55,959 nt of DNA from a virus (IMGVR_UViG_3300036791_000391:1-55959); one strand, 5' to 3'; shown: positions 950 to 54,303, counted from the first letter of the stretch. Program-made: numbers and translations. The notes: generated by a model from the sequence alone, not told the origin.

Positions 950-1035
950 CTAATTGCTACCGCGCTATCAATACGTGCTATTCTGACAGGAGATCGGCAT
1001 AGGGCCGGTCATGAACACCCAGGAGATTCGCACGC
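950..1035 (+). promoter_or_regulatory. conserved cassette copy: operator-like box, extended -10, hairpin, RBS
   Basis: CTAATTGCTACCGCGCTA; TGC-TATTCT 979-984; GATCGGC-ATAGG-GCCGGTC 992-1010; CAGGAGATTCGCA. Confidence 0.85.
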
Positions 1036-1656
1036 ATGATCACCGTCAAGGTCTACCTCAACCAGGCCAGCCACTTCCGCGCCTTCAACGCGTTCCGCGC
1101 CGAGCTGCAGCTGGCCGTCACGTTCGAGATCGACGCCACCGAGCCCGAGTTCGTCGTGACCGACGACCCGAGCCTGAGCAACGCCGAGTTCGACGTTCGC
1201 TACCGTGCCGCCCGCGACGAGCACAACACCTGGGTCGACCCGATTCTGAACCACGTCTACGAGCAGCTGAACGTCGGCGGTGACGTCTTCCCCGCCGAGC
1301 CGTACACCGTGGAGTACCGGATGGCCGGTAACCGCTCGCTCTCGGTGGGCGACCTGGTGGTCCTCGAATGGGACCGGGAGCTGGCCAACGTGACCCGCGA
1401 CGGTCGTCCGGTGGTCGTTCACGAGGTCGAGCCGTTCGCGGTCGAGCCGGTAGGCTTCAAGCGCACTAGCTCGGTGGCGATCCGTAAGGGCGTCGAGAAC
1501 TTCACCAAGAACGCGAGCAACCCAGACCGCTTCGTGCCGGTCCCGCGCACCGACCTGGCCGTGAACGACGCGGGCATGTTCGTCCTGAAGAACGAGCGCC
1601 CCGAGCCCGCCTTCACCTTCGAGTTCGTGCAGGAGGATCTTCGCAACGGCCTGTGA
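1036..1656 (+). CDS. YodL-like domain protein (moron, opposite strand to head genes)
   Basis: NRSLSVGDLVVL...FAVEPVGFKR resembles the YodL signature; strong RBS. Confidence 0.6.
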   Translation: MITVKVYLNQASHFRAFNAFRAELQLAVTFEIDATEPEFVVTDDPSLSNAEFDVRYRAARDEHNTWVDPILNHVYEQLNVGGDVFPAEPYTVEYRMAGNRSLSVGDLVVLEWDRELANVTRDGRPVVVHEVEPFAVEPVGFKRTSSVAIRKGVENFTKNASNPDRFVPVPRTDLAVNDAGMFVLKNERPEPAFTFEFVQEDLRNGL

Positions 1657-1667
1657 GCCGCTGGTAA

Positions 1668-1692
1668 GCGCCCCCGGCCACGGTCGGGGCGC
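1668..1692. terminator. probable bidirectional intrinsic terminator
   Basis: GCGCCCC...GGGGCGC hairpin between convergent genes. Confidence 0.55.
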
Positions 1693-2040
1693 TTACCTAT
1701 CAGCAGGAGTGACCACGGTGTCGCCCTGATCGTGTGAGACCAGCCGACCCATCACGACGTACTTGCGGATCGGTCCCTCAGGTGGTCTAAGCAGGGTGAT
1801 GTAGCAGTCGTACACCCAGGTCCCTGCCGAGTCCGGTCCTCCAAGGGAGAGCAGTATTTCGCCAGTCTCGCCCGGTTGGTCAAGAACCTTGGCTCCCAGC
1901 TCGTCCAGCTCGGATTCCAAGTTGACGACATACAGCTTGACGAACTGCGCGTCGGTGCAGGGCTCACCCACCTCAACGCCGCCGTAGAGCAGGGTGCCAT
2001 CTTCAAGTGCGGTGGCGATGGGGAGTGGTTGATCTGCCAT
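1693..2040 (-). CDS. hypothetical protein
   Basis: Start moved to MADQPLP (2040); TATATT-6nt-ATG leaderless promoter. Confidence 0.65.
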   Translation of the reverse strand: MADQPLPIATALEDGTLLYGGVEVGEPCTDAQFVKLYVVNLESELDELGAKVLDQPGETGEILLSLGGPDSAGTWVYDCYITLLRPPEGPIRKYVVMGRLVSHDQGDTVVTPADR

Positions 2041-2056
2041 GAGGTGAATATAACGG

Positions 2057-2608
2057 TCACGGTGGGGGTTCCGGCGGAGGCGGGCCGGGCGGCGGCGGAG
2101 CCGGGGCGAGCCCGGGCGGGGGCCATTGGTCGGTGGGTGTCGGTCCCTGAATGGCCCACGGCACACCCATCCCGTCGGGAATGATGTCGGGGTCCGGGTG
2201 CGCCGGGTGATCCGGCTGGCCGGGGAACACCCGCCAGCAGTTCCAGATCTCCACGATCGGCGCGGCACCGCCCCACTCGCAGTGGACGTGCATAATCCCG
2301 AACGTGGTCTCCGTCAGCCTGACCGGGGTGAAGTCGAAGTCGCAGTAGCCGCCGCCCACGGCGAGGACAACACTGGCGGCGGCACCGACGCCGGGGCACA
2401 GGAAGATCGTCGCGGCGGCGGGCGTTAGCCCGGGCGGGCCGGGAGCGCCGAGACCCGGCCCCTGCCCGAGACCGGGATTGCCGCCGACGGGCACGATCGG
2501 CGGCGCCGGGACCGGCGCGGGCTGGGCGTCGGCGGCGGGACAATTACAGGCCGCGAGCATAACGAAGGACGCGCTGGCCAGGATCGCTCCGGCCAGCGCG
2601 CCCCTCAT
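2057..2608 (-). CDS. secreted Pro-rich, Cys-containing protein (mycobacterial exported type)
   Basis: Signal peptide, GGYCD...HCEWGG core, poly-Pro tail; TACCCT-6nt-ATG. Confidence 0.6.
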   Translation of the reverse strand: MRGALAGAILASASFVMLAACNCPAADAQPAPVPAPPIVPVGGNPGLGQGPGLGAPGPPGLTPAAATIFLCPGVGAAASVVLAVGGGYCDFDFTPVRLTETTFGIMHVHCEWGGAAPIVEIWNCWRVFPGQPDHPAHPDPDIIPDGMGVPWAIQGPTPTDQWPPPGLAPAPPPPGPPPPEPPP

Positions 2609-2695
2609 CACCGCAGGGTAAGACTGGCCCGGGTGGATCAGTGTGAGGCACGCCAGCGCTCGATCTAAACGAACTTAACGACGCCATGAACGACG

Positions 2696-3229
2696 TTAAC
2701 GGTGCGCAGCACGCCAGGCTCTCATCCGCTCATTCTGACAAACCCGGCAGCCGCGACCCGGCCTGCCGTTAGCATTTACCCGCATGATCGTGTTCTCCGG
2801 GGTGAACTCATGACCGCTCTTGCACCGCGTCTTATTTGAGTTGTGATTCCGGCCATTAGTAACGGCGTTGATCTGATTACCGGGCCGGGTATCCCAGGTC
2901 AGGTTGTCCAGGTGGTTGTTTAACGGGTCATCATCCCAGTGGCAGCCGTCTCTCATACGAGTCGGGCACGGCCCACGGAACGCTTCGAGTACGGCCCGAT
3001 GGATCAGTAACGTCTTATTACCCGGCATCTTGACATACAGGTAGCCGGGGCTGCCGTTGACCTTCGTCGTACGGCCCGGCTTAAGGACCCGGCCCTGGAG
3101 CCTGCGAGTTGTGAGACCGCCCCATCGGTCACGCTGTGTCACCGTCCGATCAATACTCCTGATCTGCCCATGATCGCTAACCTCGGCTATCTCCTCATAT
3201 CCGACGACCGGAAGCCATCGCTCAACCAT
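2696..3229 (-). CDS. NUMOD4-HNH homing endonuclease
   Basis: ERWLPVVGYE..EVSDHGQIRS (NUMOD4); IHRAVLEAFRG, CHWDDDPLNNHLDNL (HNH); C-terminal CKSGH..CRVC. Confidence 0.9.
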   Translation of the reverse strand: MVERWLPVVGYEEIAEVSDHGQIRSIDRTVTQRDRWGGLTTRRLQGRVLKPGRTTKVNGSPGYLYVKMPGNKTLLIHRAVLEAFRGPCPTRMRDGCHWDDDPLNNHLDNLTWDTRPGNQINAVTNGRNHNSNKTRCKSGHEFTPENTIMRVNANGRPGRGCRVCQNERMRAWRAAHR

Positions 3230-3323
3230 TCTCTAAACATAACGCACGGAGATGACATCGTAAACTACGGCCACCCTTGTCAGATGGCCGTAGTTTACTG
3301 TAACGTTCTGACCTGCTACTTCG

Positions 3324-4983: not shown

Positions 4984-5694
4984 ATGGTGATTCGTCAGGC
5001 GGTTGAGAAGCTGGAAGGACCGGAGTTCGTCGCCGCGCAGGCCCGGGCGTGGACGGACATCCGGGAGTTTGTCGAGGAGGCGGTGCTGCCGGTCGTGCAG
5101 AGCGAGACGGGCGGCAGCGTCAACGGGCCGGGCTCCTCCTTGGGGTGCACCACGGGGCTGGTTGCCGACCTGCCCGAGTTTTGGAGGCGGCACGGTATCT
5201 CTTCACTCCTCGACGCGCCCTGCGGCGACTGGACGTGGATGCAGCACGTGGACCTGACCGGGGTGATCTACGTCGGCTGGGACTGCGACGAGGAGCTGAT
5301 CCGGCGCAACCGGGAGCGTTTCGAGCGGCGCGGTGATGGCCGGATGGCGTGGTTCTTCTGCCGGAACATCCTGACCATCCACAAGCTGCCGATCATGGAC
5401 GCGGTCTTCTGCCGGGACTTCCTCGCCCATCTCCCGACCGAGCACATCGTGGACGTGCTGGCCAAGTTCCAGGCCAGCCGCTGTACCTACTTGATGGCGT
5501 CGAACTATCCCGGCGTGAGCAATGAATTCGAGTACCACCCGGAGAACTTCGCCTGGCTGGGCTACTGCGAGCGCCCGCACGATCTTGAGGCGGCACCGTT
5601 CCACCTCTCCAAGATCGACGCCCTGCCCGAGATCGCGGGACCGGGCGGGGTCATCTCCCTCCCGCACGAGCTGGCCCTGTTCCGGCTGAACTGA
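4984..5694 (+). CDS. class I SAM-dependent methyltransferase
   Basis: GPGSS, SLLDAPCGDWTW, YVGWD, FCRDFLAHLP; start at 4984 (TACGCT-6nt-ATG). Confidence 0.85.
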   Translation: MVIRQAVEKLEGPEFVAAQARAWTDIREFVEEAVLPVVQSETGGSVNGPGSSLGCTTGLVADLPEFWRRHGISSLLDAPCGDWTWMQHVDLTGVIYVGWDCDEELIRRNRERFERRGDGRMAWFFCRNILTIHKLPIMDAVFCRDFLAHLPTEHIVDVLAKFQASRCTYLMASNYPGVSNEFEYHPENFAWLGYCERPHDLEAAPFHLSKIDALPEIAGPGGVISLPHELALFRLN

Positions 5695-6146: not shown

Positions 6147-6171
6147 GCTGTGAGGTGGGACTCATTGCCAC

Positions 6172-6263
6172 GAAACAAGAAACCGCCCCCGGTGGCAGGT
6201 CGGGGGCGGTTCTCCTTGCTCGCGCGAACGGGGTCACCCGACTAAGTCGCTCGGTCCGCGCAA
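6172..6263 (-). ncRNA. candidate structured small RNA
   Basis: Cassette promoter upstream; closing stem TTGCGCGGAC/GTTCGCGCGA enclosing two small hairpins; ends in terminator with T-tract. Confidence 0.45.
6174..6212 (-). terminator. intrinsic terminator
   Basis: AACCGCCCCCG...CGGGGGCGGTT followed by TCTTGTTT on the minus strand. Confidence 0.75.
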
Positions 6264-6267
6264 GGCT

Positions 6268-6295
6268 GACTCTACTCTACCGCGCTAGCAATTAG
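6268..6295 (-). promoter_or_regulatory. conserved cassette copy (box and -10 only)
   Basis: CTAATTGCTAGCGCGGTAGAG-TAGAGT on the minus strand. Confidence 0.8.
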
Positions 6296-8090: not shown

Positions 8091-9063
8091 GCAGCGCGCC
8101 GGGCTGCTCGTCGCCGTCGTCACCGGGATGCGGCCCAAGCTCGAGGAGCGCCCGACCGCCGGTTTCCTGGACGGCCTGGACGGCTTCGGGGTCCAGGACA
8201 TCGTGTGGGTGGTCTCCGAGCGGGACGCGCCCAACTACGAGCGCGACGGCCACCCGCTCTGCGTCTACCCGAAGGACTGGTCCTACGAGTACGCCAGGAG
8301 CCACTGGATGCTCGCCGCCGAGCCCAACCCGCAGTTCCTCGGCGCGTTCCCGGGCCGGGAGTGGGCCTGCCGGGAAGCGGAGCGGCGCGGCTGCTGGGGC
8401 GTGCTGCAGTGCGACGACAACTTCATCCGGATGGTGATGCCGCGCGACGGCTGGGCGGGCCGTGAGGTGGTCGCGCGCAACGGCGGGATGGCCCTGTTCG
8501 TGGACCTGCTGATCGCGGTCGCGCTGAGCACCAACGGGCGCATGGTCGGCGCGCAGCTCAGCTCGATCCCGTACGTCAAGTTGCAGCTGGCCCGGTCCGG
8601 GTTCCCCTACTCGTTCTTCATCGAGAAGGTCGGGCCGGGGCGCGAGGACTGGTACGGGCCCTACGAGGACGACATCACGCACGCGTTCCAGTACGGGTGC
8701 CGGGCCGACGCGGGCAGCTCGACCGCCGTGGTCGTGCCGACGCTCCGGTACAAGAAGGAGCCCGGCTCCAAGTCCGCGATGCGCTCGTACTACGACCACA
8801 CCCGGGCGGTCAGCCTGCAGCGGATCTTCCCCGAGGCCGCGAACATCACCATCAAGAGCAGGCGCAGCAACGGGATGGGCACCCCGCGCGTCTACCACCA
8901 GATGAGCCCCGGCGCGATCCGCAACAAGATGGTCGTCAAGGACCGTGAGCTGTTCCTGCAGGTCAAGGCCCGGATCGAGGAGCTGCTGCCGGAGTGGCGC
9001 GCCCTGAACGACGCCCGGGTGCGTGAGAAGGTCGCCCGCCGGGCCGCCCTGGCGCACGGCTAG
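8071..9063 (+). CDS. GREB1/TET-associated-like glycosyltransferase (GT-A fold)
   Basis: IVWVVSERD, GREWACREA, VLQCDDN (DxD-like), YEDD; follows ParB gene. Confidence 0.55.
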   Translation: MFVTKPEQRAGLLVAVVTGMRPKLEERPTAGFLDGLDGFGVQDIVWVVSERDAPNYERDGHPLCVYPKDWSYEYARSHWMLAAEPNPQFLGAFPGREWACREAERRGCWGVLQCDDNFIRMVMPRDGWAGREVVARNGGMALFVDLLIAVALSTNGRMVGAQLSSIPYVKLQLARSGFPYSFFIEKVGPGREDWYGPYEDDITHAFQYGCRADAGSSTAVVVPTLRYKKEPGSKSAMRSYYDHTRAVSLQRIFPEAANITIKSRRSNGMGTPRVYHQMSPGAIRNKMVVKDRELFLQVKARIEELLPEWRALNDARVREKVARRAALAHG

Positions 9064-9194: not shown

Positions 9195-10957
9195 GCGCGG
9201 AGCCCTTCCTCGAAATACTTCGACGCCAGCTGGCGCTGGTCGGCGTGGCGCAGGTAAGCCAGGCCGTCGCTCACGTTCTTGATGTCGGGGATGCCGGTCA
9301 TGTTGCGGAACGTGTGCAGCGCCCGGCTGACGTTGATCGGCCCGCCGCTGTTCAGCTCGATCAGGTCGTCGTCGATCTCGGAGTCGGGCACACCGTCCTC
9401 GTGCTCGTCCTCGTCGGAGTCCTCCTGGGCGGCGATGGCGCCCTCGACATCCTCGCCCTCGTAGTCGCCCAGCTCGTCGTCGGCGTCGGGGAACTGTCGT
9501 TTGGTCTCGTCGTCGTCCTCGTCCTCGTCGCCCTGGCCGCCGCCCTTCTTGAACGGTGGCGCCTTCTTGCCGCCGAAGTCGCGGAACCCGGACCCGGCGT
9601 CGGCGCTGGGCTGCGGGGCCGTGACCTCGTTCTCGTGGGCGTCGTCGTCGGCGTCCCCGGAATACACCTCGTCGTAGCCCGCGTCATGCGGATCCTGGGT
9701 GGTTCCCCGCCCGAACGGATCCCACACGTACGGGGCCAGCCCACCCAACCGGGCGTCCCCGGGCGCGGGCCGGGAACCCTGCTGCAGGGTGCTCGCCGGG
9801 CTGGATGGGAGCGGCGTGCGGCTGCCGTCGTACATCACGGCCCACAGCGTCGTCCCGCCATCCGCGTTGCGCACCATATCGACGTGGCTCACCCCGGCCA
9901 TCATCCCGTGGGTGTAGCTCGCGCTCGCGGCCTGCTTTCCGCTGTCCTCGCTCACGTCGTGTCCAGCACTCTTCATCGCGGCCTTGATCTTGCTCTTGAC
10001 CGCCGCGAGTTGGGTTGGGGTGTAACCTTTTTGGTTCTTCGGCATGTTGATGTAGCTCCACGCCGCCTGCACGTGCTTGGCGTCGATGGGGTAGCGCTTC
10101 ACCCCGTTGCCGCCCTTGGCCTGGTTCCCGCTGGCGTCCAGGTAGCCGGGGTCGGCGAAGTTGCCCACGTTCGCGTACGCCTTGGGCGTCTTAGCGCGCT
10201 GGTTCTCGCACGTCGCGCAGCGGCCGTCGGTCAGGTCGTGGTCGTCGTCGGAGCGCCACGCGCGCTTCGTCTTGGGCATTAGCCTGCCCACCGTGTCGGG
10301 CAGGCTGGCCAGCGCCACGGTGGCCCGGTGCACCAGGTCGGGGTCCAGCCTGCGCAGCTCGACCAGCTCCTTGTGGGAGAGCGAACTCAACGCCTCGACG
10401 CCCTGCTGCAGGATCGCCCTGGTGCCCGGGTTCATGCCGAAATTCACCACCGACACGTCGCCCTTGTGCAGGCTCACCTCGGTGATGGTCCGGTTGGTGT
10501 AGTTGTCGTCCCATACCTGGTCCTTGACCCGGAACGCGAACGACATCTCGTCCATGTTCGACCGGCCGTTGGCCTGCGGCTTCAGCTTCGGGGCCAGCGC
10601 CTGCACGTCGGGGTCGGAGCGGTCCAGGGTCGCCCGGATGCGCAGCCCGTGGCTGTCCCGGCTCAGGGCCAGCGTCCCGCTCTTGGTCCGGGCCAGGGGC
10701 AGGCCCTCGTGGTTGATCAGCAGCATCACGTCCGGGCTCTCGCCCAGTGTCCGGTCGAACGCGGTCGGGGTCAGGGTCTCCACCCAGCCGCCACGCTCCG
10801 GTCCCCCGTACACGTCGTACGGGGTGAACGTCGCCGCGTAGCCTTCCAGCACGTAGTTGCCCTCCGAGTCCTCGCGGAACTCGAAATGGGTGCCCTTGCG
10901 CTCCTCGCGAACATCGAGAATCCGGGCACGATTGCTGTGACACTCTTGGGTGGCCAT
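9191..10957 (-). CDS. HK97-type prohead protease fused to a DUF6582-like domain and acidic tail
   Basis: LEGYAATF, LLINH, SRDSHGL, MSFAFRV, DVSVVNF (S78 protease); FADPGY..KRYPID..HVQAAWSYIN. Confidence 0.85.
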   Translation of the reverse strand: MATQECHSNRARILDVREERKGTHFEFREDSEGNYVLEGYAATFTPYDVYGGPERGGWVETLTPTAFDRTLGESPDVMLLINHEGLPLARTKSGTLALSRDSHGLRIRATLDRSDPDVQALAPKLKPQANGRSNMDEMSFAFRVKDQVWDDNYTNRTITEVSLHKGDVSVVNFGMNPGTRAILQQGVEALSSLSHKELVELRRLDPDLVHRATVALASLPDTVGRLMPKTKRAWRSDDDHDLTDGRCATCENQRAKTPKAYANVGNFADPGYLDASGNQAKGGNGVKRYPIDAKHVQAAWSYINMPKNQKGYTPTQLAAVKSKIKAAMKSAGHDVSEDSGKQAASASYTHGMMAGVSHVDMVRNADGGTTLWAVMYDGSRTPLPSSPASTLQQGSRPAPGDARLGGLAPYVWDPFGRGTTQDPHDAGYDEVYSGDADDDAHENEVTAPQPSADAGSGFRDFGGKKAPPFKKGGGQGDEDEDDDETKRQFPDADDELGDYEGEDVEGAIAAQEDSDEDEHEDGVPDSEIDDDLIELNSGGPINVSRALHTFRNMTGIPDIKNVSDGLAYLRHADQRQLASKYFEEGLRA

Positions 10958-11039: not shown

Positions 11040-12398
11040 TTATCCTCGCGCGTTGCCGTTTCGGGGAGCAGGCGCGCCAACGGGGGTGACCGGCTGGTTG
11101 TTGCCGGGTCCGAACTCCCCGCCGGTGATCGGCTTGCCTGGCAACGGCTGCGGGGGCGTGGTGCCCGGCCTACCGACCGGCGTCGAGACCGTGAGCGGCT
11201 TGGAAATGACGCCGCCCGCCATCGGCTCGAAGCCCAGCGGCACGTAGTTGACGGGCTGCAGCGGCTCGTCGCCACCCTCCTTCAACGGCTCCATCTCCTC
11301 CTGGGCGCGGACCTCGTTCGGGGTGATCCAGAAGCTCATCAGCGCGGTCTTGTAGGCGTCGAACCGGGCCTTGATGTCGCCGCGCAGCAGGGCGCTGAAG
11401 TCGAACTTGACGAACTGGCCACCCGGCAGCATGTTGCTGAACACGCTCTCGATGCAGGTCGTCCACGCCCGGAACGTGTACGCCACCGCCGCCAGGTTGA
11501 TTTGTTCGACACCGGTTCCCCAGGCGGTCGTCTCCTTGGTGTCCCCGATCAGGATCGGCGGCACCCCGTACATGATGCAAATCTCGGACCGCTGGAACTG
11601 CCGGGTGGCGAGGAACTGGGACTCCTCCGGCTTGATCGACAGCGGCGCGAACTTGAAGCCGTTCGCCAGCACGGCGGGCAGCTTCCGGCCCTGGTGGCTT
11701 TTGATCCACTGCTGCTGAGCCTGCAGCACGGCGCCGTCGTCCAGATCCTGGTCGGTGCACAGCATCCCGCTTGGATTCGCGGACTCCTTGAACCAGCGAT
11801 ACCCGTACTCCTCAGCGGCCAGGTTCATCCCGATCGCGACCGCAGCCTGGCGCACGGGGCTCAGGCCCCACGGCTCGCCGGGCATCGTGAAGCGGCGGAC
11901 GTGCAGCATGTCGTTGGTCGGGATGGCTTCGCCCATCACCCGGTACACCGGGTCGAACCAGCGCAGGATATCGGGCCGTCGTTCCAGGAACACCACGTCG
12001 GGATGCAGCGGCATCACGGCGGTCGGGTAGTCATTCGGGCCGCGCGACGTGATCAGACCGTAGAAGTTGCCGCGCAGTGCCAGGCTGGTGACCATCTGCC
12101 ACTTGTACTGAAACAGGTCGAACCCGGGCCACGGCTGGCGGATAATGGCGGGCTGCGGTCGGACCTCGACCGGAATCCCTTTAGCGTCTCTCCGGTAGAC
12201 CTTCCACGGCAGCGAGGCGATGGTGTCGGCGAGGAGCCGCACGCAGGCCATGACTGTCATCACAGACATTGCCCTATGCACACCGACGTAGTCGTCCAGC
12301 ACACCGACAGCCGGAGGCGGCACGAACGCGCTTTCGGTCAGGGTGCGCTTCTCGGGCTCCCCGGCACGAAGCGACCCAAGCCGGGCCAGGACACTCAT
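11040..12398 (-). CDS. portal protein (HK97 family)
   Basis: VMACVRLLADTIASLP, LALRGNFY, GLSPV, QFLATRQF..EIC..YGVPP, TPNEVRAQE; start MSVLARL. Confidence 0.93.
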   Translation of the reverse strand: MSVLARLGSLRAGEPEKRTLTESAFVPPPAVGVLDDYVGVHRAMSVMTVMACVRLLADTIASLPWKVYRRDAKGIPVEVRPQPAIIRQPWPGFDLFQYKWQMVTSLALRGNFYGLITSRGPNDYPTAVMPLHPDVVFLERRPDILRWFDPVYRVMGEAIPTNDMLHVRRFTMPGEPWGLSPVRQAAVAIGMNLAAEEYGYRWFKESANPSGMLCTDQDLDDGAVLQAQQQWIKSHQGRKLPAVLANGFKFAPLSIKPEESQFLATRQFQRSEICIMYGVPPILIGDTKETTAWGTGVEQINLAAVAYTFRAWTTCIESVFSNMLPGGQFVKFDFSALLRGDIKARFDAYKTALMSFWITPNEVRAQEEMEPLKEGGDEPLQPVNYVPLGFEPMAGGVISKPLTVSTPVGRPGTTPPQPLPGKPITGGEFGPGNNQPVTPVGAPAPRNGNARG

Positions 12399-12838: not shown

Positions 12839-14525
12839 AGCGGTGTCGCTCCTCCATGATGCTGTCGATCATGATGACTTTCTGCTCGCTCCCGGTCCCC
12901 TGCTTCTGCTCCGCCTCCGCCTGCTCCGCCTCCGCCTGGGCTTCCTTCTCCCAGCGGGCGATCTCGTCGTCGTCGGGCCAGTCGTAGACCTTCGACTTGC
13001 TCGGCGGCGGTCGGCCTTCCAGCCACACGGCGGCGGCGCAGGCGACGATGGGTGACACGTCCACGGGCGAGTTGCGCCGGTCGAAGATCCAGGCGTCACC
13101 GGTGCGGCGCGACACCCCGCTGGCGGCGGCGCGGTCCATCACCCCGGAGGGCCGGTGGAAGATCGTGTGGTCGCAGATGCCGTCGAAGAACAGCGCGCAC
13201 CCGGTCTGAAGTTCCAGTCCCGGACCCCACTCCACGACCTTCACCCCGGCCCGTTTCAGCTCAGGGATCAGGCCGCTCGCCGGGGCTCCGGTCTTCTGCA
13301 CCGCCACCCCGACGTAGTTCTCTTTGCGCTCGGCCAGCCAGTCGACCACCCAGTCCGTCCCCCGCGCCGCCTGGATGATCTCGATGTGCAGATTCCCGTC
13401 TTCGCGTCGGGCCGCGATGGCGACGTAGCTGGTGGTGCGCTGGTAGTTCACGTCGAGAGCCGCGTACACAGGCGATGTTTCCGCCCTCCTGCTTGTTCCG
13501 TCCATGCCGTCCTGCCAGTACTCGGCGGGGATCACACCCGGGTCCAGCGCGTCCACCGTCTGGCACAGGTACTCGGTCTGCCAGCCCGGCATGTTCTTGT
13601 ACTGCATGGTCTCGAACCGGCCCTGCAGGTCCTCGATGGTGAACTCGTTCAGCAGCCCGACGGCGGGGTTGGCCTGCGGCCAGTACTTCGGGTTGCGCGG
13701 GTCGGCCTCCGGCGGTGCGCTCCACTCGAAGTACCCGGTCTTGGTGGTCCGGGTGTCCCCCGTGGTGATCCGCCGCTTCGCCGCCTGCTGCTGGGAGAGC
13801 AGCACGATGGAGCGGGCGTCCCCGGCGTTGCTCGTGCAGAGCACCTGGGAGCAGGGGCGGACGGTGCCGGTCGGGGTGATGGCGTCCCAGGCGTCCCAGG
13901 TGTGATGGGTGCGCAGCTCGTCCAGCCACACCAGGTCCACGGAGAGCGACCGGGCTCCCTTGGTGTTCGCCGTGCAGGCCCGCCAGTACCGGCGGTTGGT
14001 CAGGATGGCCCGGTGCTTGCCGTTGGTCTCCTTGTGGTTGACCAGCTCCGGGGCCAGCGCTCTCGTGTCGCGGATCTCGTCCACGACCTCCTTCAGCGTG
14101 GTCTCCGCGTAGTCGAGGGTCTGCGCCGCGACCACCGCCAGCTTCGCGCCCGGCATCTTCCCGTTGACCCGGCCGACCTTGCTGTAGAACAGCCGCCACA
14201 TGCCCAGGCCCCGGCCCCATTTCGTCTTCCCGTTCTGGCGCGCGACTAGGACGACCAGGAACTGGAACCGGAACCCCGTGTGGTCGGGTTTCTTCTCCAA
14301 CGCGTGCCAGTACAACCAAATCTGCCACGGCAGCAGCAGCCAGCGGCAGACCACGGTCAGGAACAAGATGCACTCGCCGCCCCAGGACGTGCGGTCGTTC
14401 AGGCCGCAGCCGCACGGGCAGGCCAGCTCGCCGGGCCGGGCATCGCAGTTCTCCGGCAGCGGAGGGGTGAACAGCCGGGGTTTCGTGCAGCCGGTGACCG
14501 GGACCGGTTCGGTGGCGGTCGTCAC
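12828..14525 (-). CDS. terL: terminase large subunit
   Basis: Walker A VARQNGKT, Walker B LVWLDELR, TSNAG, QANP, nuclease ALDV..VDVSP; GTG start overlapping upstream stop. Confidence 0.93.
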   Translation of the reverse strand: MTTATEPVPVTGCTKPRLFTPPLPENCDARPGELACPCGCGLNDRTSWGGECILFLTVVCRWLLLPWQIWLYWHALEKKPDHTGFRFQFLVVLVARQNGKTKWGRGLGMWRLFYSKVGRVNGKMPGAKLAVVAAQTLDYAETTLKEVVDEIRDTRALAPELVNHKETNGKHRAILTNRRYWRACTANTKGARSLSVDLVWLDELRTHHTWDAWDAITPTGTVRPCSQVLCTSNAGDARSIVLLSQQQAAKRRITTGDTRTTKTGYFEWSAPPEADPRNPKYWPQANPAVGLLNEFTIEDLQGRFETMQYKNMPGWQTEYLCQTVDALDPGVIPAEYWQDGMDGTSRRAETSPVYAALDVNYQRTTSYVAIAARREDGNLHIEIIQAARGTDWVVDWLAERKENYVGVAVQKTGAPASGLIPELKRAGVKVVEWGPGLELQTGCALFFDGICDHTIFHRPSGVMDRAAASGVSRRTGDAWIFDRRNSPVDVSPIVACAAAVWLEGRPPPSKSKVYDWPDDDEIARWEKEAQAEAEQAEAEQKQGTGSEQKVIMIDSIMEERHRYDW

Positions 14526-29922: not shown

Positions 29923-29985
29923 CGATTCACCTTTCCGGGCGTGGCCCTGTGCCGTGCCCCAGCGCTTCAAACTCTACCCCACTAG
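29923..29985 (-). promoter_or_regulatory. degenerate cassette copy
   Basis: CTAGTGGGG-TAGAGT; GGGCACGGC-ACAGG-GCCACGCCC 29937-29959; GAAAGG RBS. Confidence 0.65.
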
Positions 29986-38574: not shown

Positions 38575-38708
38575 GCCGGGATGATCGTGCGTTGCCGATT
38601 CTGCGGGATCGAGCGCAAGGAGACCAGCGCGCTGATGATCCGGATGACCGATGGACAGTACCGATGTAAGGGAGCTGTGATGTGCCGACGCAGGGTCCGG
38701 GCGCTGCA

Positions 38709-40652: not shown

Positions 40653-40661
40653 CCCGCGTGT

Positions 40662-40743
40662 CACACCCCTGGACTAGCTTCAGGGGCGTGGCCCGGAGGT
40701 CAGGGGCAATCGGCCCCCAACCCCACATATCCGAAAGGCAATC
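40662..40743 (+). promoter_or_regulatory. promoter with alternative dyad plus cassette hairpin
   Basis: CCCCTG..TAGCTT..CAGGGG; GGGGC-AATCG-GCCCC 40703-40717; GAAAGG RBS. Confidence 0.55.
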
Positions 40744-41922
40744 ATGATGAACACATCCCTCCCCACCCTTCCCGAGCGCACCCTGCGCAAGGCGGAACTC
40801 GCCGATCTGGTCGCGCTGCTGGAAGCGCAGCACCGGCAGAAGATCGACCTTGTGGCCCCGCTCTCCTCGATCCGCTACAACGGCGGGCAGATGGAGATCG
40901 GCGCGCTGGACCCCGTCATCGACGAGTCCGGCGTCACCGACGTGAACGGCCTGTACCGGCCCACCCGCACCACGGACTCGCAGCTGGGCGACCAGTTCGG
41001 CATCCCGCTGCGCTACATGGACAAGATGCGCACGGAGCACGTCGCCCTGCTCGACACCAACATCAACGAGTGGGCGGCGCGCGCACCCGAGGGCAAGAAC
41101 GTCCTCATCCGCATGATCTACGGCTCCGACGAGCGTTACCCGGGCACCAGCGGGATCGTGCGGGCCGTCAAGAGCGACCGCTACGGGATCCGGGACAACC
41201 TGGACACCGTGCTCGCCGTGCTCGACGGGATGCGCGAGGCCGGTCTTGAGGCGACCAACTTCGCCGGGGCCGACATCACCGACGACCGGATGTGGTTCCG
41301 CATCTCCGCGCCCGAGATCTTCGTTTCCGCGCCGGAGCTGTTGGAGGGTTACCGTGACCCGCGCACCGGGCGCACGTCCCGCAGCGTCGGCGACGTGGTC
41401 TACGCGGGCGTCCGGGTGGAGAACTCGGAGACCGGCTGGGCCTCGCTCAAGGTCATCCCCGAGATCACGGTACTGGCCTGCACGAACGGCATGACGATCA
41501 ACAAGGCGGCGCACCGCCAGGTACACATGGGCGCCCGGATGGACGAGGGCTCGATCCAGTGGAGCCAGCGCACCCAGGAGGTCGCCAACGAGCTGACGAA
41601 GAACCAGGTCAAGGACGCCATCGCGTCGTTCATGACCACGGACTTCCTCACCAGCGCGGTCGCGGAGATCACCCAAACCGCCATCACCGAGCTGACCAGC
41701 CCGGAGAAGGCGATCGAGGTCGTCGCCAAGAAGCTGAGCTATTCCGACACCGAGAAGGACGGCATCCTGGCCCACTTCATCAAGGGCGGTCAGCTCACGG
41801 CGGGCGGCATCCTGCAGGCCGTCACGTCCTTCGCCCAGGACATCACCGACGTGACCCGGGCGAACGAGTTCGGTGCGACCGGCATCGAGGCGATGGAGCT
41901 GGCAGCGGCCTCCGTGCGCTAG
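40744..41922 (+). CDS. DUF932 family protein
   Basis: RAVKSDRY..DN, VENSETG, LACTNGM, RQVHMG, QAVTSFAQ. Confidence 0.75.
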   Translation: MMNTSLPTLPERTLRKAELADLVALLEAQHRQKIDLVAPLSSIRYNGGQMEIGALDPVIDESGVTDVNGLYRPTRTTDSQLGDQFGIPLRYMDKMRTEHVALLDTNINEWAARAPEGKNVLIRMIYGSDERYPGTSGIVRAVKSDRYGIRDNLDTVLAVLDGMREAGLEATNFAGADITDDRMWFRISAPEIFVSAPELLEGYRDPRTGRTSRSVGDVVYAGVRVENSETGWASLKVIPEITVLACTNGMTINKAAHRQVHMGARMDEGSIQWSQRTQEVANELTKNQVKDAIASFMTTDFLTSAVAEITQTAITELTSPEKAIEVVAKKLSYSDTEKDGILAHFIKGGQLTAGGILQAVTSFAQDITDVTRANEFGATGIEAMELAAASVR

Positions 41923-41935
41923 TCTCCCCCAGCCG

Positions 41936-41976
41936 CCAGCCCCGGGTTGTCCCTCGCTTCCCGGGGCTGGTCTCTG
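41936..41976 (+). terminator. intrinsic terminator
   Basis: CCAGCCCCGGG...CCCGGGGCTGG then TCTCTGT. Confidence 0.7.
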
Positions 41977-42014
41977 TGATCAAGGGCACAGCCGGGTTCC
42001 ACTGTGGGAACGTG

Positions 42015-42089
42015 CTAATTGCTACCGCGCTAGAGTAAGCTCAGGAGGAGCCCGGCAAAAGGCCAGGCCACAGCATCAAGGAGATTCGC
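42015..42089 (+). promoter_or_regulatory. conserved cassette copy
   Basis: CTAATTGCTACCGCGCTAGAG-TAAGCT; GCCCGGC-AAAAG-GCCAGGC; CAAGGAGATTCGC. Confidence 0.85.
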
Positions 42090-42932
42090 ATGAGCTACTA
42101 CGGAAACAGCTTCCAGTGGGGCGGCCCCGTTCGTCCGCGCCGCAACGGCCTGCACGACCGCAACGCCGCGTGGAGGGGCCAGCCGATGACCGACACCCAG
42201 GCCGCGAAGATCGTCAAGGAGCTGGGCCGCCGGGTGATCGAGCCGGTCGTCCGCGACGCGCTGCTCGCCTCCGTGAACTCGGGCGTGACCCGGGACGGTA
42301 ACCCGGCCACCAAGGGGTCCGCGTCGGACCTGATCGACTGGCTGCTCGCCAAGCCGTACACCTCGCGTACCGAGGTCAGCACCAGCGTCACCAAGGACGA
42401 CGAGCCCGTCCGGGTGGAGGGGTTCTACCGCTTCACCGACGGGCGGGTGTTCCGGGTCATGGAGAGCCAGCGCAACCCGGGCCGCTACTTCGCCAAGGTC
42501 GTCACGGCGCACGGCTGGGACTACGCGGGCGGCAGGGGCATGGTCTACCAGCTGACCGCCGAGATGCTGATGACTCCGGAGCAGATCGCCGAGTTCGGCG
42601 TCAACTCCGGGATCTGCGCGAACTGCTCACGTGGGCTTGAGGACCCGATCTCCAAGCACATCGGTTTGGGCACCAAGTGCGGCCCGGCCATCCTCGGGCG
42701 GGACAACTACAACGCCGCCCGCCGGGGCGCGAAGCTGAACCCCACGGTGGCGGAGCAGCTGGCCGCGATCCAGGCCGGGAAGGACGCGCAGCAGGCGCAG
42801 GCTGACCGGTTCGACGTGGACGAGTGGGCCCGGATGAAGGACGAGGCGGCCCGCTACGAGGCCGAGCAGGAGCGCAAGGCCGAGATCGCCAAATGGGAGT
42901 GGAAGCGGTCAGTCGAGAACTGGGACAAGTAA
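42090..42932 (+). CDS. DUF6011 zinc-finger domain protein
   Basis: GICANCSRGLEDPISKHIGLGTKC. Confidence 0.75.
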   Translation: MSYYGNSFQWGGPVRPRRNGLHDRNAAWRGQPMTDTQAAKIVKELGRRVIEPVVRDALLASVNSGVTRDGNPATKGSASDLIDWLLAKPYTSRTEVSTSVTKDDEPVRVEGFYRFTDGRVFRVMESQRNPGRYFAKVVTAHGWDYAGGRGMVYQLTAEMLMTPEQIAEFGVNSGICANCSRGLEDPISKHIGLGTKCGPAILGRDNYNAARRGAKLNPTVAEQLAAIQAGKDAQQAQADRFDVDEWARMKDEAARYEAEQERKAEIAKWEWKRSVENWDK

Positions 42933-43222
42933 GCCACCCCGCGTGCGAAAATCGGAATCGTGAACCTGAAGCAGATCGCCATGTTCGTGGCGCTGTATTT
43001 CCCGATCATGGCTGGTCTATACGACCTGGCATATTTCGCGGTGTACGGACACTGGGCGCCGTGGAAATGAGCGCGGGACCGGACTTTCGTACCAGCAGCA
43101 GCGGTCTGGGGATTACCCCGGGCCGGTTCTCTTTTGCCCGAGTCAGGGTCGGCGCGCCCACGGCAGCAGCTGGGCCAGCGCGATCAGGCCCACCTCGATC
43201 ACCAGGATGATCTCAAAGGTGT

Positions 43223-43846
43223 TCATCGCCGAACTGTATCGTTCTTTGACCACCAGCCATTGGCTCTCAGCTCCTCGTGTCGGCGTGCTTGACCTTTGCC
43301 GGTATTGCACGAATTGCAGCAGGGCTCAAGATTGTCCGGGTCATTGTTGCTGCGGTCATCATCCAAGTGGTCTGCCTGGATTAGCCGAGGATCGGCTTTT
43401 CTCGGGTCCACCACCATCCAAACGATTGTCTTACCGCAGCGGTAACACGGATGGGGCCCGGGGCCGATCTTGTCATAGAGCACCACACGGTGTTCTAGGA
43501 CGGTGCCGTTCTTTGTTGCCAGCGGATGAGCAGGCCGATGAACCCGACGGTACTTCCCGACCGGGGCACCGATGCCCGAGCCCCAAGCTGTCCTCTCGAC
43601 ACTGCCATGACGGTACTTCCGGTGGTAGTGCATCCCGCATAGGACGGAACCCTTGGTCCGAGCTAGCTTCCCGCAGCCATCGACTGAGCACGTCTGCTGG
43701 TCCTTCGGGAGAGCCGGATAGGGAGACCCGTACCGACGTTGATGCTCATAGTGCATCTTGCACATCTCACGAGCGCTCGCGGGCCGATCACAGCCGTCGA
43801 GGCTACAGGTCCCGAGCCGTTTTTTAGGTGGCATGTTCGGGAACAT
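43223..43846 (-). CDS. HNH homing endonuclease
   Basis: Two CSxDGC..CxxHY repeats; EHRVVL; DHLDDDRSNNDPDNLEPCCNSCN. Confidence 0.88.
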   Translation of the reverse strand: MFPNMPPKKRLGTCSLDGCDRPASAREMCKMHYEHQRRYGSPYPALPKDQQTCSVDGCGKLARTKGSVLCGMHYHRKYRHGSVERTAWGSGIGAPVGKYRRVHRPAHPLATKNGTVLEHRVVLYDKIGPGPHPCYRCGKTIVWMVVDPRKADPRLIQADHLDDDRSNNDPDNLEPCCNSCNTGKGQARRHEELRANGWWSKNDTVRR

Positions 43847-51603: not shown

Positions 51604-51832
51604 CGTTCTCCTTATCCTCGGCGGCCTGAACCGCACCGATCACGGCGTCTGCCTGTTGCAGAATCAGCCTGATTTCCCGCTCCATGTGCCGCAGCATCTC
51701 GCTGGGCTTGGTCAGCCCGTGGGTGTCCGCCCGTTTAGCCAGCGTGCCGAACTGGGCCGCGAGCGAGCCCATCCCGGGTGTCATCGACGCCAGGCTGTCC
51801 CGGGCCATCTGGCATAGCCCCTCGGCGGTCAC
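51593..51832 (-). CDS. hypothetical protein
   Basis: GTGA overlap. Confidence 0.55.
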   Translation of the reverse strand: MTAEGLCQMARDSLASMTPGMGSLAAQFGTLAKRADTHGLTKPSEMLRHMEREIRLILQQADAVIGAVQAAEDKENDGR

Positions 51833-52491
51833 CGATCCGGCCCGCCCGGTCCGGTGAGATCCCGGTTGAACCCCTCCGCGACGTTCACGAACCGCTCGAT
51901 CAGGTTCTGCACCGCCTCCGGGCCGATCTCCCAGCCCTCCTCGATGATCTCCACCAGCTCCGGCGGCATCTCCCGGACGATCTCCAGGCCCAGCGCCATC
52001 GCCTCCCCGAACCGGCCACCGACCTTCGGGCCGACCTCCAGACGCGAATCGATCCAGTCGCCCAGCGTGGGCGGCTTATCCGGGTACCGAGTCAGCGGGG
52101 CGTGAACCATTCCGCCCCGGCCGCGCCGATCCGAGCACATCAGGATCACCGCCTCGGTCCGGTCGGGGCGTTCCCGGATCGGTGTGGTGACCGTGCCCCG
52201 GGAGACATCCACGTCGGGGTCGTCCCGGTCCACCATGGCCATGTACCCGGTGGTGACCGTGACGCACTCGGTGGCTTGACCCACGGCCAGGGTGGCGGTG
52301 ATCCACCTAGCGAGCTTGTCCTTGGCCTCGTCGTCCTTCATCAGCTCGCCCATCGACATCAGCCCGGGGCCGTGCGGCCCTAGCCACAGCAAGATCGGCA
52401 TGATGTCGTCGTCGGGGTCGGTCAGCCCCTCGACACACTCCCGGGAATGCGTCTTGGCGTGCTCGACCAAATCGGGCACGGATGGGGCCAT
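51829..52491 (-). CDS. hypothetical protein (paralog of 26933..27577)
   Basis: Start MAPSVPDL after GAAAGGA. Confidence 0.7.
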   Translation of the reverse strand: MAPSVPDLVEHAKTHSRECVEGLTDPDDDIMPILLWLGPHGPGLMSMGELMKDDEAKDKLARWITATLAVGQATECVTVTTGYMAMVDRDDPDVDVSRGTVTTPIRERPDRTEAVILMCSDRRGRGGMVHAPLTRYPDKPPTLGDWIDSRLEVGPKVGGRFGEAMALGLEIVREMPPELVEIIEEGWEIGPEAVQNLIERFVNVAEGFNRDLTGPGGPDR

Positions 52492-52562
52492 TTGGTTCCT
52501 TTCATCGGGACCGGCCTGTTGCCGATCCAGGGTCTGACTATAGCTAGCGCAGTAACAGTTGG
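52492..52562 (-). promoter_or_regulatory. cassette variant
   Basis: AACTGTTACTGCGCTAGC-TATAGT; GATCGGC-AACAG-GCCGGTC 52509-52527; GAAAGGA. Confidence 0.75.
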
Positions 52563-52972: not shown

Positions 52973-53367
52973 CAGACCGTGCTCCCATTGCTCGGTGGGC
53001 CGATTGGTTCTAGTGCGTGTCCGATCAGCCAGGGGCAGTACGCCCCCTCCGCTGCGCCGACAAAATACAGCGAGTCCGCAAGCGGTAGGAATCCGCCATT
53101 TGAGGTGGACCACCGGCCGATCCTCCGGGCCTCATCCGGCACAGTGATCCCGGTGGACAGGTCCAAGCAGACGTTGTGCGCGGTATTGATCAGGGTGTAA
53201 TCCTCCCCGTGCAGGGCAGTGAGCCCGTCATCAGCCATCGCCGCCAGGAACGCGGCGTCATCGGAGTCAGCGTGTGCAACACCGATACCAGACCCCATCA
53301 GGCCTGAGAAAGGTAAGACCGCAATACCGACTGCGGCCACTACCTTCAGGATGGTTACCCGGCGCAT
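52972..53367 (-). CDS. secreted DUF732 protein
   Basis: AHADSDDAAFLAAM..AHNVC.DL..FVGAAEGAYCP. Confidence 0.8.
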   Translation of the reverse strand: MRRVTILKVVAAVGIAVLPFSGLMGSGIGVAHADSDDAAFLAAMADDGLTALHGEDYTLINTAHNVCLDLSTGITVPDEARRIGRWSTSNGGFLPLADSLYFVGAAEGAYCPWLIGHALEPIGPPSNGSTV

Positions 53368-53747
53368 CAGACGCTCCCCACCATGGTGGCGGGGCTCGGG
53401 GAGTCGATCACGGCCTGCCAGGCGGTGGGGCAGAACACGATGGCCGCGTCCTCCACCTGATCCAGCATGTTCTGGTAAGTCATGGGGAGGCTGGGCGACC
53501 AGTTGTAATTGGCGATCCGGTGGGCATCCCAACCGTTGTAGCGCATCTCAGCGCAGACCGTGCCCGCAAATCTAATGGCCTGTGACGTGTCGGTGACCGT
53601 GAGACCGTCGTTGTTCATCATCTGCAGATAGACCAGGGTGTCATGGTCGATGGGCGCAGCGCTCGCCGACCCGGCGAGGGTGATCCCGGTGGCCATCGCC
53701 CCCACGATCCCGAGGGCGGCGATACCGCCCCTGACACTGTTCTTCAT
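53367..53747 (-). CDS. secreted DUF732-like protein
   Basis: Signal peptide; YLQMM..AGTVC..AAIVFCP. Confidence 0.75.
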   Translation of the reverse strand: MKNSVRGGIAALGIVGAMATGITLAGSASAAPIDHDTLVYLQMMNNDGLTVTDTSQAIRFAGTVCAEMRYNGWDAHRIANYNWSPSLPMTYQNMLDQVEDAAIVFCPTAWQAVIDSPSPATMVGSV

Positions 53748-53789
53748 GTCGTGCTTCCTTTCAACCGGACCCGGCCCATTGCCGTGGTC
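53748..53789 (-). promoter_or_regulatory. cassette hairpin plus RBS
   Basis: GACCACGGC-AATGG-GCCGGGTC then GAAAGGA. Confidence 0.6.
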
Positions 53790-53848
53790 TCGCGCCCTGC
53801 CCCGGGCTCGCACCGGGGTCGCCGCTAACGCTCAGGGCTCCTGCGCTG

Positions 53849-54013
53849 TCAGGCCATCACCTCCTCCCGGTTCCGGCGCACCCACGCGGGGAGCTGCGCG
53901 GAGCCGACGCAGTCACACTGGTCGGAGGTATCGGCCTGCGATGGCCATGTCCATACGAGCGCCGATGCTGCGACAGCGGCGCTCGCCAACCACACCTTGC
54001 CCTTACCGTTCAT
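53849..54013 (-). CDS. small secreted or membrane peptide
   Basis: MNGKGKVWLASAAVAASALVW; ATGA overlap. Confidence 0.5.
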   Translation of the reverse strand: MNGKGKVWLASAAVAASALVWTWPSQADTSDQCDCVGSAQLPAWVRRNREEVMA

Positions 54014-54159
54014 CGGATAACGCTTCTGTAAAGCGCCTTGCACTCGTGCCCGAAGCCGATGGCTTCGAGCGGGCCGTCAACGATGACTCCGCAATGCTCG
54101 CACTCGTAATCCTCGTATACGACGTACCCGTTCGTAATCCAGTCTGCGGTGTCCACCAT
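54010..54159 (-). CDS. 49-aa zinc-binding protein
   Basis: Manual ORF ECEHCG..GHEC. Confidence 0.5.
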   Translation of the reverse strand: MVDTADWITNGYVVYEDYECEHCGVIVDGPLEAIGFGHECKALYRSVIR

Positions 54160-54185
54160 TCCAACCTTCCTTGTCCCGTTCCTTG

Positions 54186-54221
54186 TCAAGCACTAATCGC
54201 GTACTTGGTGACATCGATCAT
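54186..54221 (-). CDS. 11-aa peptide MIDVTKYAISA
   Basis: Directly follows consensus CAGGAGATTCGC RBS. Confidence 0.4.
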   Translation of the reverse strand: MIDVTKYAISA

Positions 54222-54303
54222 GCGAATCTCCTGGGGTTCTGGCCTGGCCCTGTGCCTGACTCTCCCCTGAGCTTAGCACAGCATTCTAGCGCGCTACCAA
54301 TTA
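54222..54303 (-). promoter_or_regulatory. conserved cassette copy
   Basis: TAATTGGTAGCGCGCTAGA; TGC-TAAGCT; GTCAGGC-ACAGG-GCCAGGC; CAGGAGATTCGC. Confidence 0.85.

Follow-up and report, generated by a model that had tools for sequence, protein, structure and literature searches.

The leader hairpin and its copies in the window

The viral DNA IMGVR_UViG_3300036791_000391:1-55959, referred to here as the window, comes from a soil phage and comprises the full length of an IMG/VR virus record, 55,959 bases in linear form, with a G+C content of 66% and a CheckV completeness of about 60%. Its minus strand carries a head-and-packaging module between 3.3 and 14.6 kb (major head protein, protease, portal, and large terminase, all by PHROG matches), and the remainder is mainly occupied by small genes of unknown function, arranged in three strand blocks. 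No tRNA was found in the window. Twelve gene leaders in this DNA contain a small hairpin between the upstream region and the Shine-Dalgarno (SD) sequence. This hairpin is a real, conserved, and structured leader RNA motif, which is separate from the operator-like box AATTG-TAsCGCGsTA that precedes many of its copies.

The hairpin is composed of a lower stem of 3 to 4 bp, a C-G pair or a C.A mismatch, an upper stem GGC/GCC, and a pentaloop A-NNN-G. The pattern GGCANNNGGCC occurred 14 times in the window compared with 6.38 expected occurrences (standard deviation, 2.71; 14 were reached by 1 of 100 shuffles). Twelve of these 14 sites are leaders, 20 to 29 nt upstream of an SD-preceded start codon and on the strand of the respective gene, and the remaining two (38505, minus strand, and 39063, plus strand) are located inside open reading frames (ORFs) and look like chance occurrences. 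A previous sequence-only reading of this DNA had listed 11 hairpin sites, all of which were present, and the copy at 35166 to 35184 on the plus strand was added as the twelfth. The eight loop sequences given at that time were correct, and the twelfth copy contributes the loop ACCGG.

A covariance model (R1) was built from 27 seeds and provided the bit scores of the copies. It recovered all seeds and 10 window copies with at least 26 bits; the next best match in the window, with 20 bits, was antisense within a gene, and nothing else was convincing. The 12 leader hairpins are as follows.

992 to 1010, plus strand: GATC-GGC-ATAGG-GCC-GGTC, 26.2 bits, upstream of ORF 1036-1656
29939 to 29957, minus strand: hairpin with a 2x2 internal loop, 27.7 bits, upstream of ORF 29488-29922 (minus)
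31034 to 31052, plus strand: CCC-C-GGC-ACCAG-GCC-A-GGG, 29.6 bits, upstream of a 29-amino-acid (aa) ORF at 31077
32514 to 32532, plus strand: loop AAAAG, 35.1 bits, upstream of ORF 32553-33182
35166 to 35184, plus strand: twelfth copy, loop ACCGG, continuous stem, without promoter box, 28.5 bits, upstream of ORF 35207-35530
36641 to 36659, plus strand: GATC-GGC-ATAGG-GCC-GATC, 26.6 bits, upstream of ORF 36679-36855
39799 to 39817, plus strand: GACC-C-GGC-AAGAG-GCC-A-GGTC, 30.6 bits, upstream of ORF 39841-40389
40701 to 40719, plus strand: GG-GGC-AATCG-GCC-CC, without promoter box, 19.0 bits (weak), upstream of ORF 40744-41922, which encodes a 392-aa homolog of Bipper gp49
42050 to 42068, plus strand: loop AAAAG, 31.8 bits, upstream of ORF 42090-42932
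52509 to 52527, minus strand: GGATC-GGC-AACAG-GCC-GGTCC, 26.6 bits, upstream of ORF 51829-52491 (minus)
53769 to 53787, minus strand: bulged A, without promoter box, 18.1 bits (weak), upstream of the DUF732 ORF 53367-53747 (minus)
54242 to 54260, minus strand: GTC-A-GGC-ACAGG-GCC-A-GGC, 30.5 bits, upstream of an 11-codon mini-ORF starting at 54221 (minus)

Two of the hairpin leaders are followed by tiny ORFs of 11 codons (54186-54221, minus strand) and 29 codons (31077-31166, plus strand). The latter is coupled to ORF 31166-31456 by an overlapping TGATG junction. Both could be leader peptides or merely tiny genes.

Fold, covariation, and conserved positions

The described fold was present in 12 of 12 leader copies, with free energies between −6.5 and −17.5 kcal/mol per 31 nt. 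Within the full leader, the upper stem was paired (probability of being unpaired at most 0.05), and the SD was mostly open in the predicted folds. The lower stem had not been used in choosing the window sites. It was fully paired at the three mismatch-adjacent offsets in 9 of the 12 leader copies, whereas among the remaining 112 GGCN5GCC sites of the window, 12 were paired in this way (Fisher test, p = 3.4e-6).

Pairing was scored in several sets of sequences against shuffled controls. The 27 seeds were paired in 81.5% of the cells compared with 66.7% in shuffles (reached by 0 of 500), and 23 ungapped sequences of the window lineage in 75.4% compared with 63.0%, with a covariation score of 0.300 compared with 0.106. 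For 46 distinct model matches from the window and five cultured Cluster Y mycobacteriophages, the values were 97.5% and 87.0% in an alignment that had been fitted to the model. The largest set contained 50 distinct copies of all lineages, taken from six genomes and metagenome fragments, ungapped and anchored on the invariant GG..CC. Here, 83.8% of the cells were paired compared with 66.7% in shuffles (0 of 500), so that covariation in homologs, which the sequence-only reading had proposed to look for, was found. Its statement that the lower stem changes while pairing is kept was borne out by 62 double-sided changes compared with 18.8 expected; slid controls paired at 15 to 50%. RNAalifold independently yielded the same fold, 3 bp, a 1x1 loop, another 3 bp, and the pentaloop.

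The third upper pair, 15-21, was C-G in 36 and U-A in 14 of the 50 copies and never broken, and the lower-stem pair 10-26 was GC in 20, CG in 14, AU in 7, UG in 4, UA in 1, and other in 4 copies. G13, G14, G20, C22, and C23 were invariant and A16 was conserved in at least 90% of the copies, meaning that the loop A-NNN-G starts with A in at least 90% of the cases and always ends with G. The middle bases of the loop are unconstrained, and loop lengths range from 4 to 6 nt. The mismatch column was unpaired in 32 of 50 copies, generally with A on the 3' side.

Promoter boxes, −10 elements, and SD sequences around the hairpin

The surroundings of the hairpin contain the following recurring elements, which together with the hairpin form the cassettes discussed below.

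952 to 969, plus strand: operator-like box AATTG-TAsCGCGsTA, followed by a −10 element of the TGnTANNNT type ending 7 nt before the stem
30998, 32472, 36600, 39765, and 42017 (plus strand) and 52560 and 54302 (minus strand): further AATTG-TAsCGCGsTA boxes
1021 to 1029, plus strand: SD box AGGAGATTC, found 8 times in the window compared with 0.14 expected, 7 times after a hairpin
1021, 31065, 32540, 36668, 39828, and 42079 (plus strand) and 54224-54232 (minus strand): the hairpin-following copies of AGGAGATTC

An eighth copy of AGGAGATTC, at 39625-39633 on the minus strand, has neither a hairpin nor an obvious start codon downstream.

The AATTG-TAsCGCGsTA box precedes 8 of the 12 window hairpins and is absent at 29953 (minus), 35170 (plus), 40705 (plus), and 53783 (minus). 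The box is thus missing in 3 of the 11 copies originally listed, not in two as had been stated, and in 4 of the 12 copies now known. A box TCTAGTGGGGTA is located at 29958-29990 on the minus strand of the window and at 1060-1099 on the plus strand of the related contig G404, before the hairpin and in place of the window-type box, and resembles the promoter box of the Cluster Y phages (GTCTAGTGAGCTATAA). Promoter types seem to have been exchanged between lineages while the hairpin was retained.

The distance between the −10 element and the hairpin is narrowly defined. In 28 of the 41 distinct Cluster Y copies, a −10-like hexamer ends 8 to 10 nt before the first paired base; it ends at 12 to 13 nt in 7 of the other copies and is absent in 6. 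In the window lineage, TANNNT ends 11 to 14 nt before the GGC in 14 of 23 copies, which corresponds to 7 to 10 nt before a 4-bp lower stem (background rate, 0.0013 per position; binomial P, 2e-25), and several of these −10 boxes possess a TGn extension. No −10 hexamer was found within 16 nt of the stem in 11 of the 64 distinct copies, 5 of the 23 from the window lineage and 6 of the 41 from Cluster Y, and some of the copies without a −10 box are situated 10 to 30 nt past the stop codon of the upstream gene. On the 3' side, the hairpin is followed by a C/A-rich spacer of about 6 to 12 nt and then by a strong SD and the start codon, with 12 to 28 nt between the end of the helix and the start codon.

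With this spacer and the SD following instead of a U tract, the hairpin does not have the form of an intrinsic terminator. The region 29800-43400 contains 5 terminator-like sites, none of which coincides with a hairpin. The sole canonical terminator on the strand of the cassettes between 29.8 and 43.4 kb is located at 43102-43125, at the end of the block, and the scan of 29800-43400 showed none with a U tract between the cassettes.

If the hairpin were a boxB-like nut site, a phage antiterminator would load on the nascent hairpin and allow the polymerase to pass downstream terminators. A pentaloop leader hairpin directly downstream of promoters, tandem units in the plus-strand block from 31 to 43 kb that end in the one canonical terminator, and stem-loops ahead of several promoter boxes agree with a nut site. 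However, the window contains 12 copies in 56 kb, each fixed at 20 to 29 nt from a start codon; copies also precede single genes or occur without promoters; there are no detected terminators between the cassettes to be passed; and the A-NNN-G loops vary in length and are not GNRA-like. An N-, Q-, or NusG-like protein was not found among 95 ORFs compared with PHROGs, nor an antiterminator among 25 compared with Pfam, in a contig that is about 60% complete; N-like proteins are small and divergent. Because of the copy number, the tie to the start codon, the kind of loop, and the lack of any candidate for an antiterminator among the ORFs compared, a nut site is very improbable and was rated lowest of all explanations considered.

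A ninth AATTGCTAGCGCGGTAGAG box is not followed by a hairpin (window 6165-6293, minus strand). It precedes instead a strongly structured RNA of 111 nt with a free energy of −50.2 and a z-score of −2.5, which ends in a canonical U-tract terminator and is a candidate for a small RNA or an attenuator.

Occurrence in other phages and hosts

By protein similarity, the closest cultured phages are Typha, Hilltopfarm, Nadezda, Bipper, and Cracklewink, in addition to two Mycobacterium abscessus prophages, with about 54% identity to these nearest phages for the terminase and for the 392-aa protein. Bipper is a Cluster Y phage of 77,832 bp with a G+C content of 67.3% (PMC4939774), and Nadezda is also described as Cluster Y (PMC12699233). 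Homologs in Bipper exist for only 8 of 106 rough window ORFs, which indicates a distant and mosaic relationship. No homologs of any Bipper ORF were found that are present in all of the window and the three contigs G404, G406, and G405, whereby three of the hairpin-bearing contigs are 60 to 80% complete.

The hairpin occurs 9 to 14 times per genome in all five Cluster Y phages. The covariance model found 10 to 16 matches per genome with E values of 1 or below, in zones at 33 to 38 kb and 62 to 71 kb. In Bipper, hairpins are located upstream of genes 42 to 46 and 49, in the interval between lysis cassette and integrase, and upstream of genes 111, 113, and 120. The layout is a conserved promoter, about 7 to 9 nt, the hairpin GGGGC-A-GGT-ACCAG-ACC-A-GCCCC, a C-rich spacer, the SD, and ATG. 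The upper stem in Bipper is mostly GGT/ACC instead of GGC/GCC, a compensatory change. When one Bipper cassette was compared by blastn with 50,697 phage records, matches were confined to the five Cluster Y phages.

Uncultured relatives carrying the hairpin were located by pattern scans. Contig G404 (63.7 kb) is 70 to 88% identical to the window across 15.3 kb and contains 3 context-checked copies. The copy at 29939..29957 (minus) has an ortholog at G404 1100, and the leader orthologous to window 992-1010, at G404 17635, has the lower stem GCC/GGC where the window has GATC/GGTC, with the hairpin kept. The lower stems of orthologous leaders therefore differ in sequence yet remain paired. Contig G406 (97 kb) carries 10 copies, preceded by one common AATTGCTAGC box and by a −10 of the extended type, and contig G405 (94 kb), which has almost no genes in common with the others, contains 2 copies behind a quite different palindromic operator. 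One good copy was present in G407, and five soil-metagenome fragments exhibited the same box, hairpin, and SD. Across these phages, the hairpin is found behind at least four promoter or operator types. This supports the sequence-only reading, in which it was described as an element just upstream of the SD and separate from the operator-like box.

In 82 other actinobacterial prophage loci (1.43 Mb; 2 plus 80 loci of Nocardia, Streptomyces, and others, gathered with the gp49-like protein), which served as a negative control, the hairpin was not found; the covariance model gave two chance-level matches and none above 22.6 bits. A search for relatives with a 280-aa ORF yielded only fragments of 21% identity. 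A scan of IMG/VR for the hairpin together with the SD box returned 51 single-match loci, all of which except L034 look like chance, and the matches listed for the GGCAGGTNNNNGACCAGCC scan were mostly single chance occurrences. The pattern GGCAGGYRNNNGRCCAGCC, which represents the A.A-mismatch form only, occurred in 70 of 401 sampled genomes of the family of Nocardia, never clustered and at about the frequency of a reversed-pattern control; the hairpin was thus not found in the sampled hosts. No hairpin was found in the 14.8 kb examined of the M. abscessus prophage prophiGD43A-5 (L065), which has a related palindromic box. Perfect palindromic boxes of the GTATAGCGCGCTATAC type are located there around 11900-12000 and 11420-11470, precede the gp49-like gene and a neighboring gene, and are related to the TAsCGCGsTA core of the window. 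With the 4,227 covariance models of Rfam, there were no matches at the gathering score in the whole window and none with an E value of 1 or below in 29800-43200.

A possible function of the hairpin in expression cassettes

Mycobacterial promoters often have no −35 motif, and initiation occurs about 7 nt after the −10 element. From the geometry of the −10 boxes, it is inferred that the transcript begins 0 to 4 nt before the stem. The hairpin would then be the first structured element of the message and the middle part of a modular cassette, which would consist of the operator-like box and the −10 element, about 7 to 10 nt, the hairpin, the C/A-rich spacer, the strong SD, and the start codon, and would drive short operons of accessory, moron-like genes. 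The tentatively preferred explanation is that the hairpin may be a cis-acting 5'-proximal stem-loop within this promoter-hairpin-SD cassette, which protects or insulates the mRNA. A 5'-terminal hairpin would impede decay that depends on the 5' end, namely pyrophosphate removal, 5' sensing by RNase E, and the exonuclease activity of RNase J. It would also hold the downstream SD free of pairing with upstream sequences. The expression of each cassette would thereby be raised and equalized. In copies without a promoter, the same effect might be exerted on the downstream cistron after processing or read-through.

Precedents for such a function exist. Bacterial mRNAs can be stabilized by 5'-terminal stem-loops, and the pyrophosphohydrolase is described as requiring at least 2 unpaired 5' nucleotides (PMC3997798). 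In Mycobacterium smegmatis, structure of the 5' untranslated region outside the ribosome site accompanies longer half-lives, according to PMC11532794. Three functions had been suggested from the sequence alone. By the spacing to the −10 element and the start codon, 5' stabilization or an effect on translation fits best, and antitermination in the manner of boxB and N is not favored. That no Bipper ORF has homologs in all of the window, G404, G406, and G405 fits a cis-acting element or a host factor.

Several results weigh against this explanation. A strict scan of 29800-43400 for −35/−10 promoters of the Escherichia coli sigma-70 type revealed 0 promoters, so that the predicted transcription start depends on −10 boxes, partly of the extended type, that lack a −35. 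Where a −10 box is missing, the hairpin cannot be 5' terminal on the primary transcript. A plain stabilizer does not need an invariant G13, G14, G20, C22, or C23 or an A16 conserved in at least 90% of the copies. Many copies had been picked by a pattern or a model that already assumed the upper stem. Finally, the numbers of G-U and A-C combinations favor no sense strand, with 7 versus 5 in the core lower stem, 0 versus 6 in the mismatch column, and 0 versus 8 in columns 8-28.

The copies without a −10 box, some of which are located just past a stop codon, indicate that the hairpin works, or at least persists, within transcripts. It might mark a processing site, with a host endoribonuclease cutting beside the hairpin to generate single-cassette mRNAs with a protective terminal hairpin, comparable to the early RNA of T7, which is split at RNase III sites. 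The position of the promoter-less copies 10 to 30 nt behind an upstream gene and the tandem cassettes without canonical terminators in between are in agreement with processing. A stem of 7 to 9 bp is nevertheless too short for RNase III, which requires about two helical turns, and the majority of the copies are immediately preceded by a −10 box of their own. Processing is consequently an improbable explanation.

The wobble counts, which do not favor the sense RNA strand, would also agree with a role of the motif at the DNA level. The inverted repeat might be a second operator, an extruded DNA hairpin, or a junction for the recombination of cassettes, and the RNA fold would be a by-product. Its presence behind four unrelated promoter or operator types and before unrelated genes, even in the gene-disparate G405, is the pattern expected of shuffled cassettes. 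Yet the lower stems vary and stay complementary, as in pair 10-26, which a dimeric DNA-binding protein would not require. A sequence of 19 nt with a variable lower stem is moreover a poor target for recombination, and orientation and spacing to the −10 element and the SD are fixed. A DNA-level role is therefore unlikely, although not quite to the same degree as processing.

The invariant positions may point to recognition by a protein. In an RNA operator, a host or phage protein would bind the upper part of the hairpin and thereby repress or activate the translation of the cassette genes, or set their timing, as a group. Five positions show no variation and a sixth is kept in at least 90% of the copies, despite completely different promoters and lower stems between the lineages, the 1x1 internal loop with its 3' A was kept in most copies (32 of 50 unpaired), and the base of the hairpin is located about 17 to 28 nt before the start codon, where a ribosome footprint has its border. 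On the other hand, the middle bases of the loop are free and loops of 4, 5, and 6 nt occur, the comparison of the 95 window ORFs gave no RNA-binding domain, and no protein is common to all hairpin-bearing genomes, albeit with three contigs being 60 to 80% complete. This makes an RNA operator a rather unlikely explanation, but one with an appreciable chance. An extended version, which is doubtful as a whole, is a post-transcriptional regulon, in which one host or phage protein would jointly turn a dozen independently promoted accessory genes on or off, for instance between lysogeny and the lytic cycle, across a supergroup of mycobacteriophages, with the hairpin as a portable plug-in on shuffled cassettes.

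A 5'-proximal stem-loop that protects or insulates the message and recognition by a protein may be combined. A host factor may additionally recognize the invariant upper part, as the invariant G-G-Y, the R...G ends of the loop, R-C-C, and the mostly unpaired 3' A suggest. Since no protein is shared by the hairpin-bearing genomes, such a factor would more likely be a host protein, or its gene would be located on stretches that the contigs lack.

Gene regulation in mycobacteriophages beyond the repressor and its stoperators is poorly understood. The hairpin is a compact, covarying motif of 19 nt in cultured phages that grow on M. smegmatis mc2 155, so that its function is directly testable, and it would merit a family in Rfam. 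Should messages be stabilized or insulated by the hairpin, mycobacterial expression cassettes would gain a part that is ready for use; if a protein reads it, this would mean a new post-transcriptional regulon in actinobacteriophages.

Other genes in the window

The ORF 53367-53747 (minus), downstream of one of the hairpins, encodes a signal-peptide-bearing protein of the DUF732 type, in agreement with a mycobacterial host. Genes of the DNA modification type are located among the head genes, at 8308-9060 (plus), 15403-16479 (minus), 17116-17649 (minus), and 5083-5691 (plus). They comprise a TET-associated glycosyltransferase domain, a galactosyl transferase, and two methyltransferases, which hints at a modified phage DNA.

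Proteins labeled "Rnase E" by PHROG are encoded at 14832-15365 (minus) and 26772-26936 (minus) of the window and by Bipper gene 8. As a partner of the hairpin, the labeled protein was dropped because it has only an N-terminal helix-turn-helix similar to sigma-70 region 4. In Bipper and in the window, such a protein is encoded directly upstream of the large terminase, the usual place of the small terminase subunit. The protein is more likely to be that subunit, and its label appears to be mistaken.

Comparison with known systems

A description of the hairpin was not found in the searched papers naming Bipper, Typha, Nadezda, or Cluster Y, with many subscription journals and supplements being outside the search. 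The leader motif is apparently undescribed and a variant of known leader and cassette elements of phages. The previous view that no such system had been described in mycobacteriophages stands for this hairpin as far as searchable papers are concerned, but a described analogue exists in the start-associated sequence (SAS) and extended start-associated sequence (ESAS) cassettes treated below.

One similarity probably arose from the search pattern itself. The IMG/VR pattern scan also caught the repeat GGGC-A-GGC-ACAAG-GCC-A-GCCC with a fixed CTAC flank in the unrelated viral contigs G408 (9733-9767 and 13811-13845, minus), G409 (4664), L388, and L390, the latter with a head-to-head pair; one of these contigs is a complete genome of 36.9 kb with a G+C content of 44%. 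The CTAC flank corresponds to the GTAG hallmark of repetitive extragenic palindromes, the copies of which are intergenic and scattered or paired, and the repeat looks like an element of this type. In contrast to these repeats, the hairpins of the window, the Cluster Y phages, and G406 have no CTAC flank, all point in the direction of the gene that follows, and keep a fixed position relative to the −10 element and the SD.

The 5'-terminal stabilizers of ompA and papA in E. coli and of aprE in Bacillus subtilis are single cases without a shared sequence, and the leaders of the late T7 messages also count among such stem-loops. The present hairpin, unlike these, is one motif with invariant bases, reused 9 to 14 times per genome, and some of its copies are internal to transcripts.

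Lambda boxB is likewise a small pentaloop leader hairpin just downstream of phage promoters. Its purine-rich pentaloop, with G as the first base, folds like a GNRA tetraloop, and each early operon has a single nut site, ahead of the terminators that the polymerase then passes. The hairpin of the window differs by its 12 copies compared with two in lambda, by its tie to the start codon, and by its loop type.

The closest parallel in design is found in the SAS and ESAS elements of Cluster K and of the Microbacterium phages of Cluster EF, the roles of which are still undefined. ESAS is now interpreted as a promoter of the SigA type that contains an imperfect inverted repeat, and SAS as an unusually well conserved box at the ribosome site. 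In phage Adephagia, the cassettes are found beside the integrase and close to the right end (PMC3203893, PMC11373665, PMC7302621). Both systems, as far as described there, place repeated intergenic cassettes before a subset of non-structural genes; the zones in Adephagia, at the integrase and the right end, are also those of the hairpins in Cluster Y; and both combine an inverted-repeat promoter box with a ribosome-site box, here AATTG-TAsCGCGsTA, the −10 element, and AGGAGATTC. The resemblance is one of design only and not a membership, because the sequences are unrelated: the 13-bp SAS consensus, which in SAS stands 3 to 9 bp ahead of start codons, matched the window 3 times with at most 2 mismatches compared with 2.05 expected matches, none at a start site. 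According to the Cluster K authors, an RNA hairpin formed by ESAS receives little support because departures from the repeat do not covary. The present cassettes, unlike ESAS, add a separate covarying hairpin between promoter and SD.

The promoter early stem-loops (PeSLs) of T4 are described as composite motifs mediating modular shuffling (PMC4122927). As in the hairpin cassettes, conserved composite regulatory motifs flank variable small genes and recur before unrelated genes, possibly aiding modular exchange (PMC4122927, PMC2839356). Short G+C-rich stem-loops without U tracts are located directly before promoter boxes at 36575-36599 and 41992-42016 on the plus strand of the window and in L345, L352, L353, and L356, and the resulting order of stem-loop, promoter, hairpin, and SD recalls the PeSL cassettes. 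The stem-loop of a PeSL is reported to be the terminator within a composite of terminator and promoter, whereas the present hairpin is located downstream of the promoter, in the leader.

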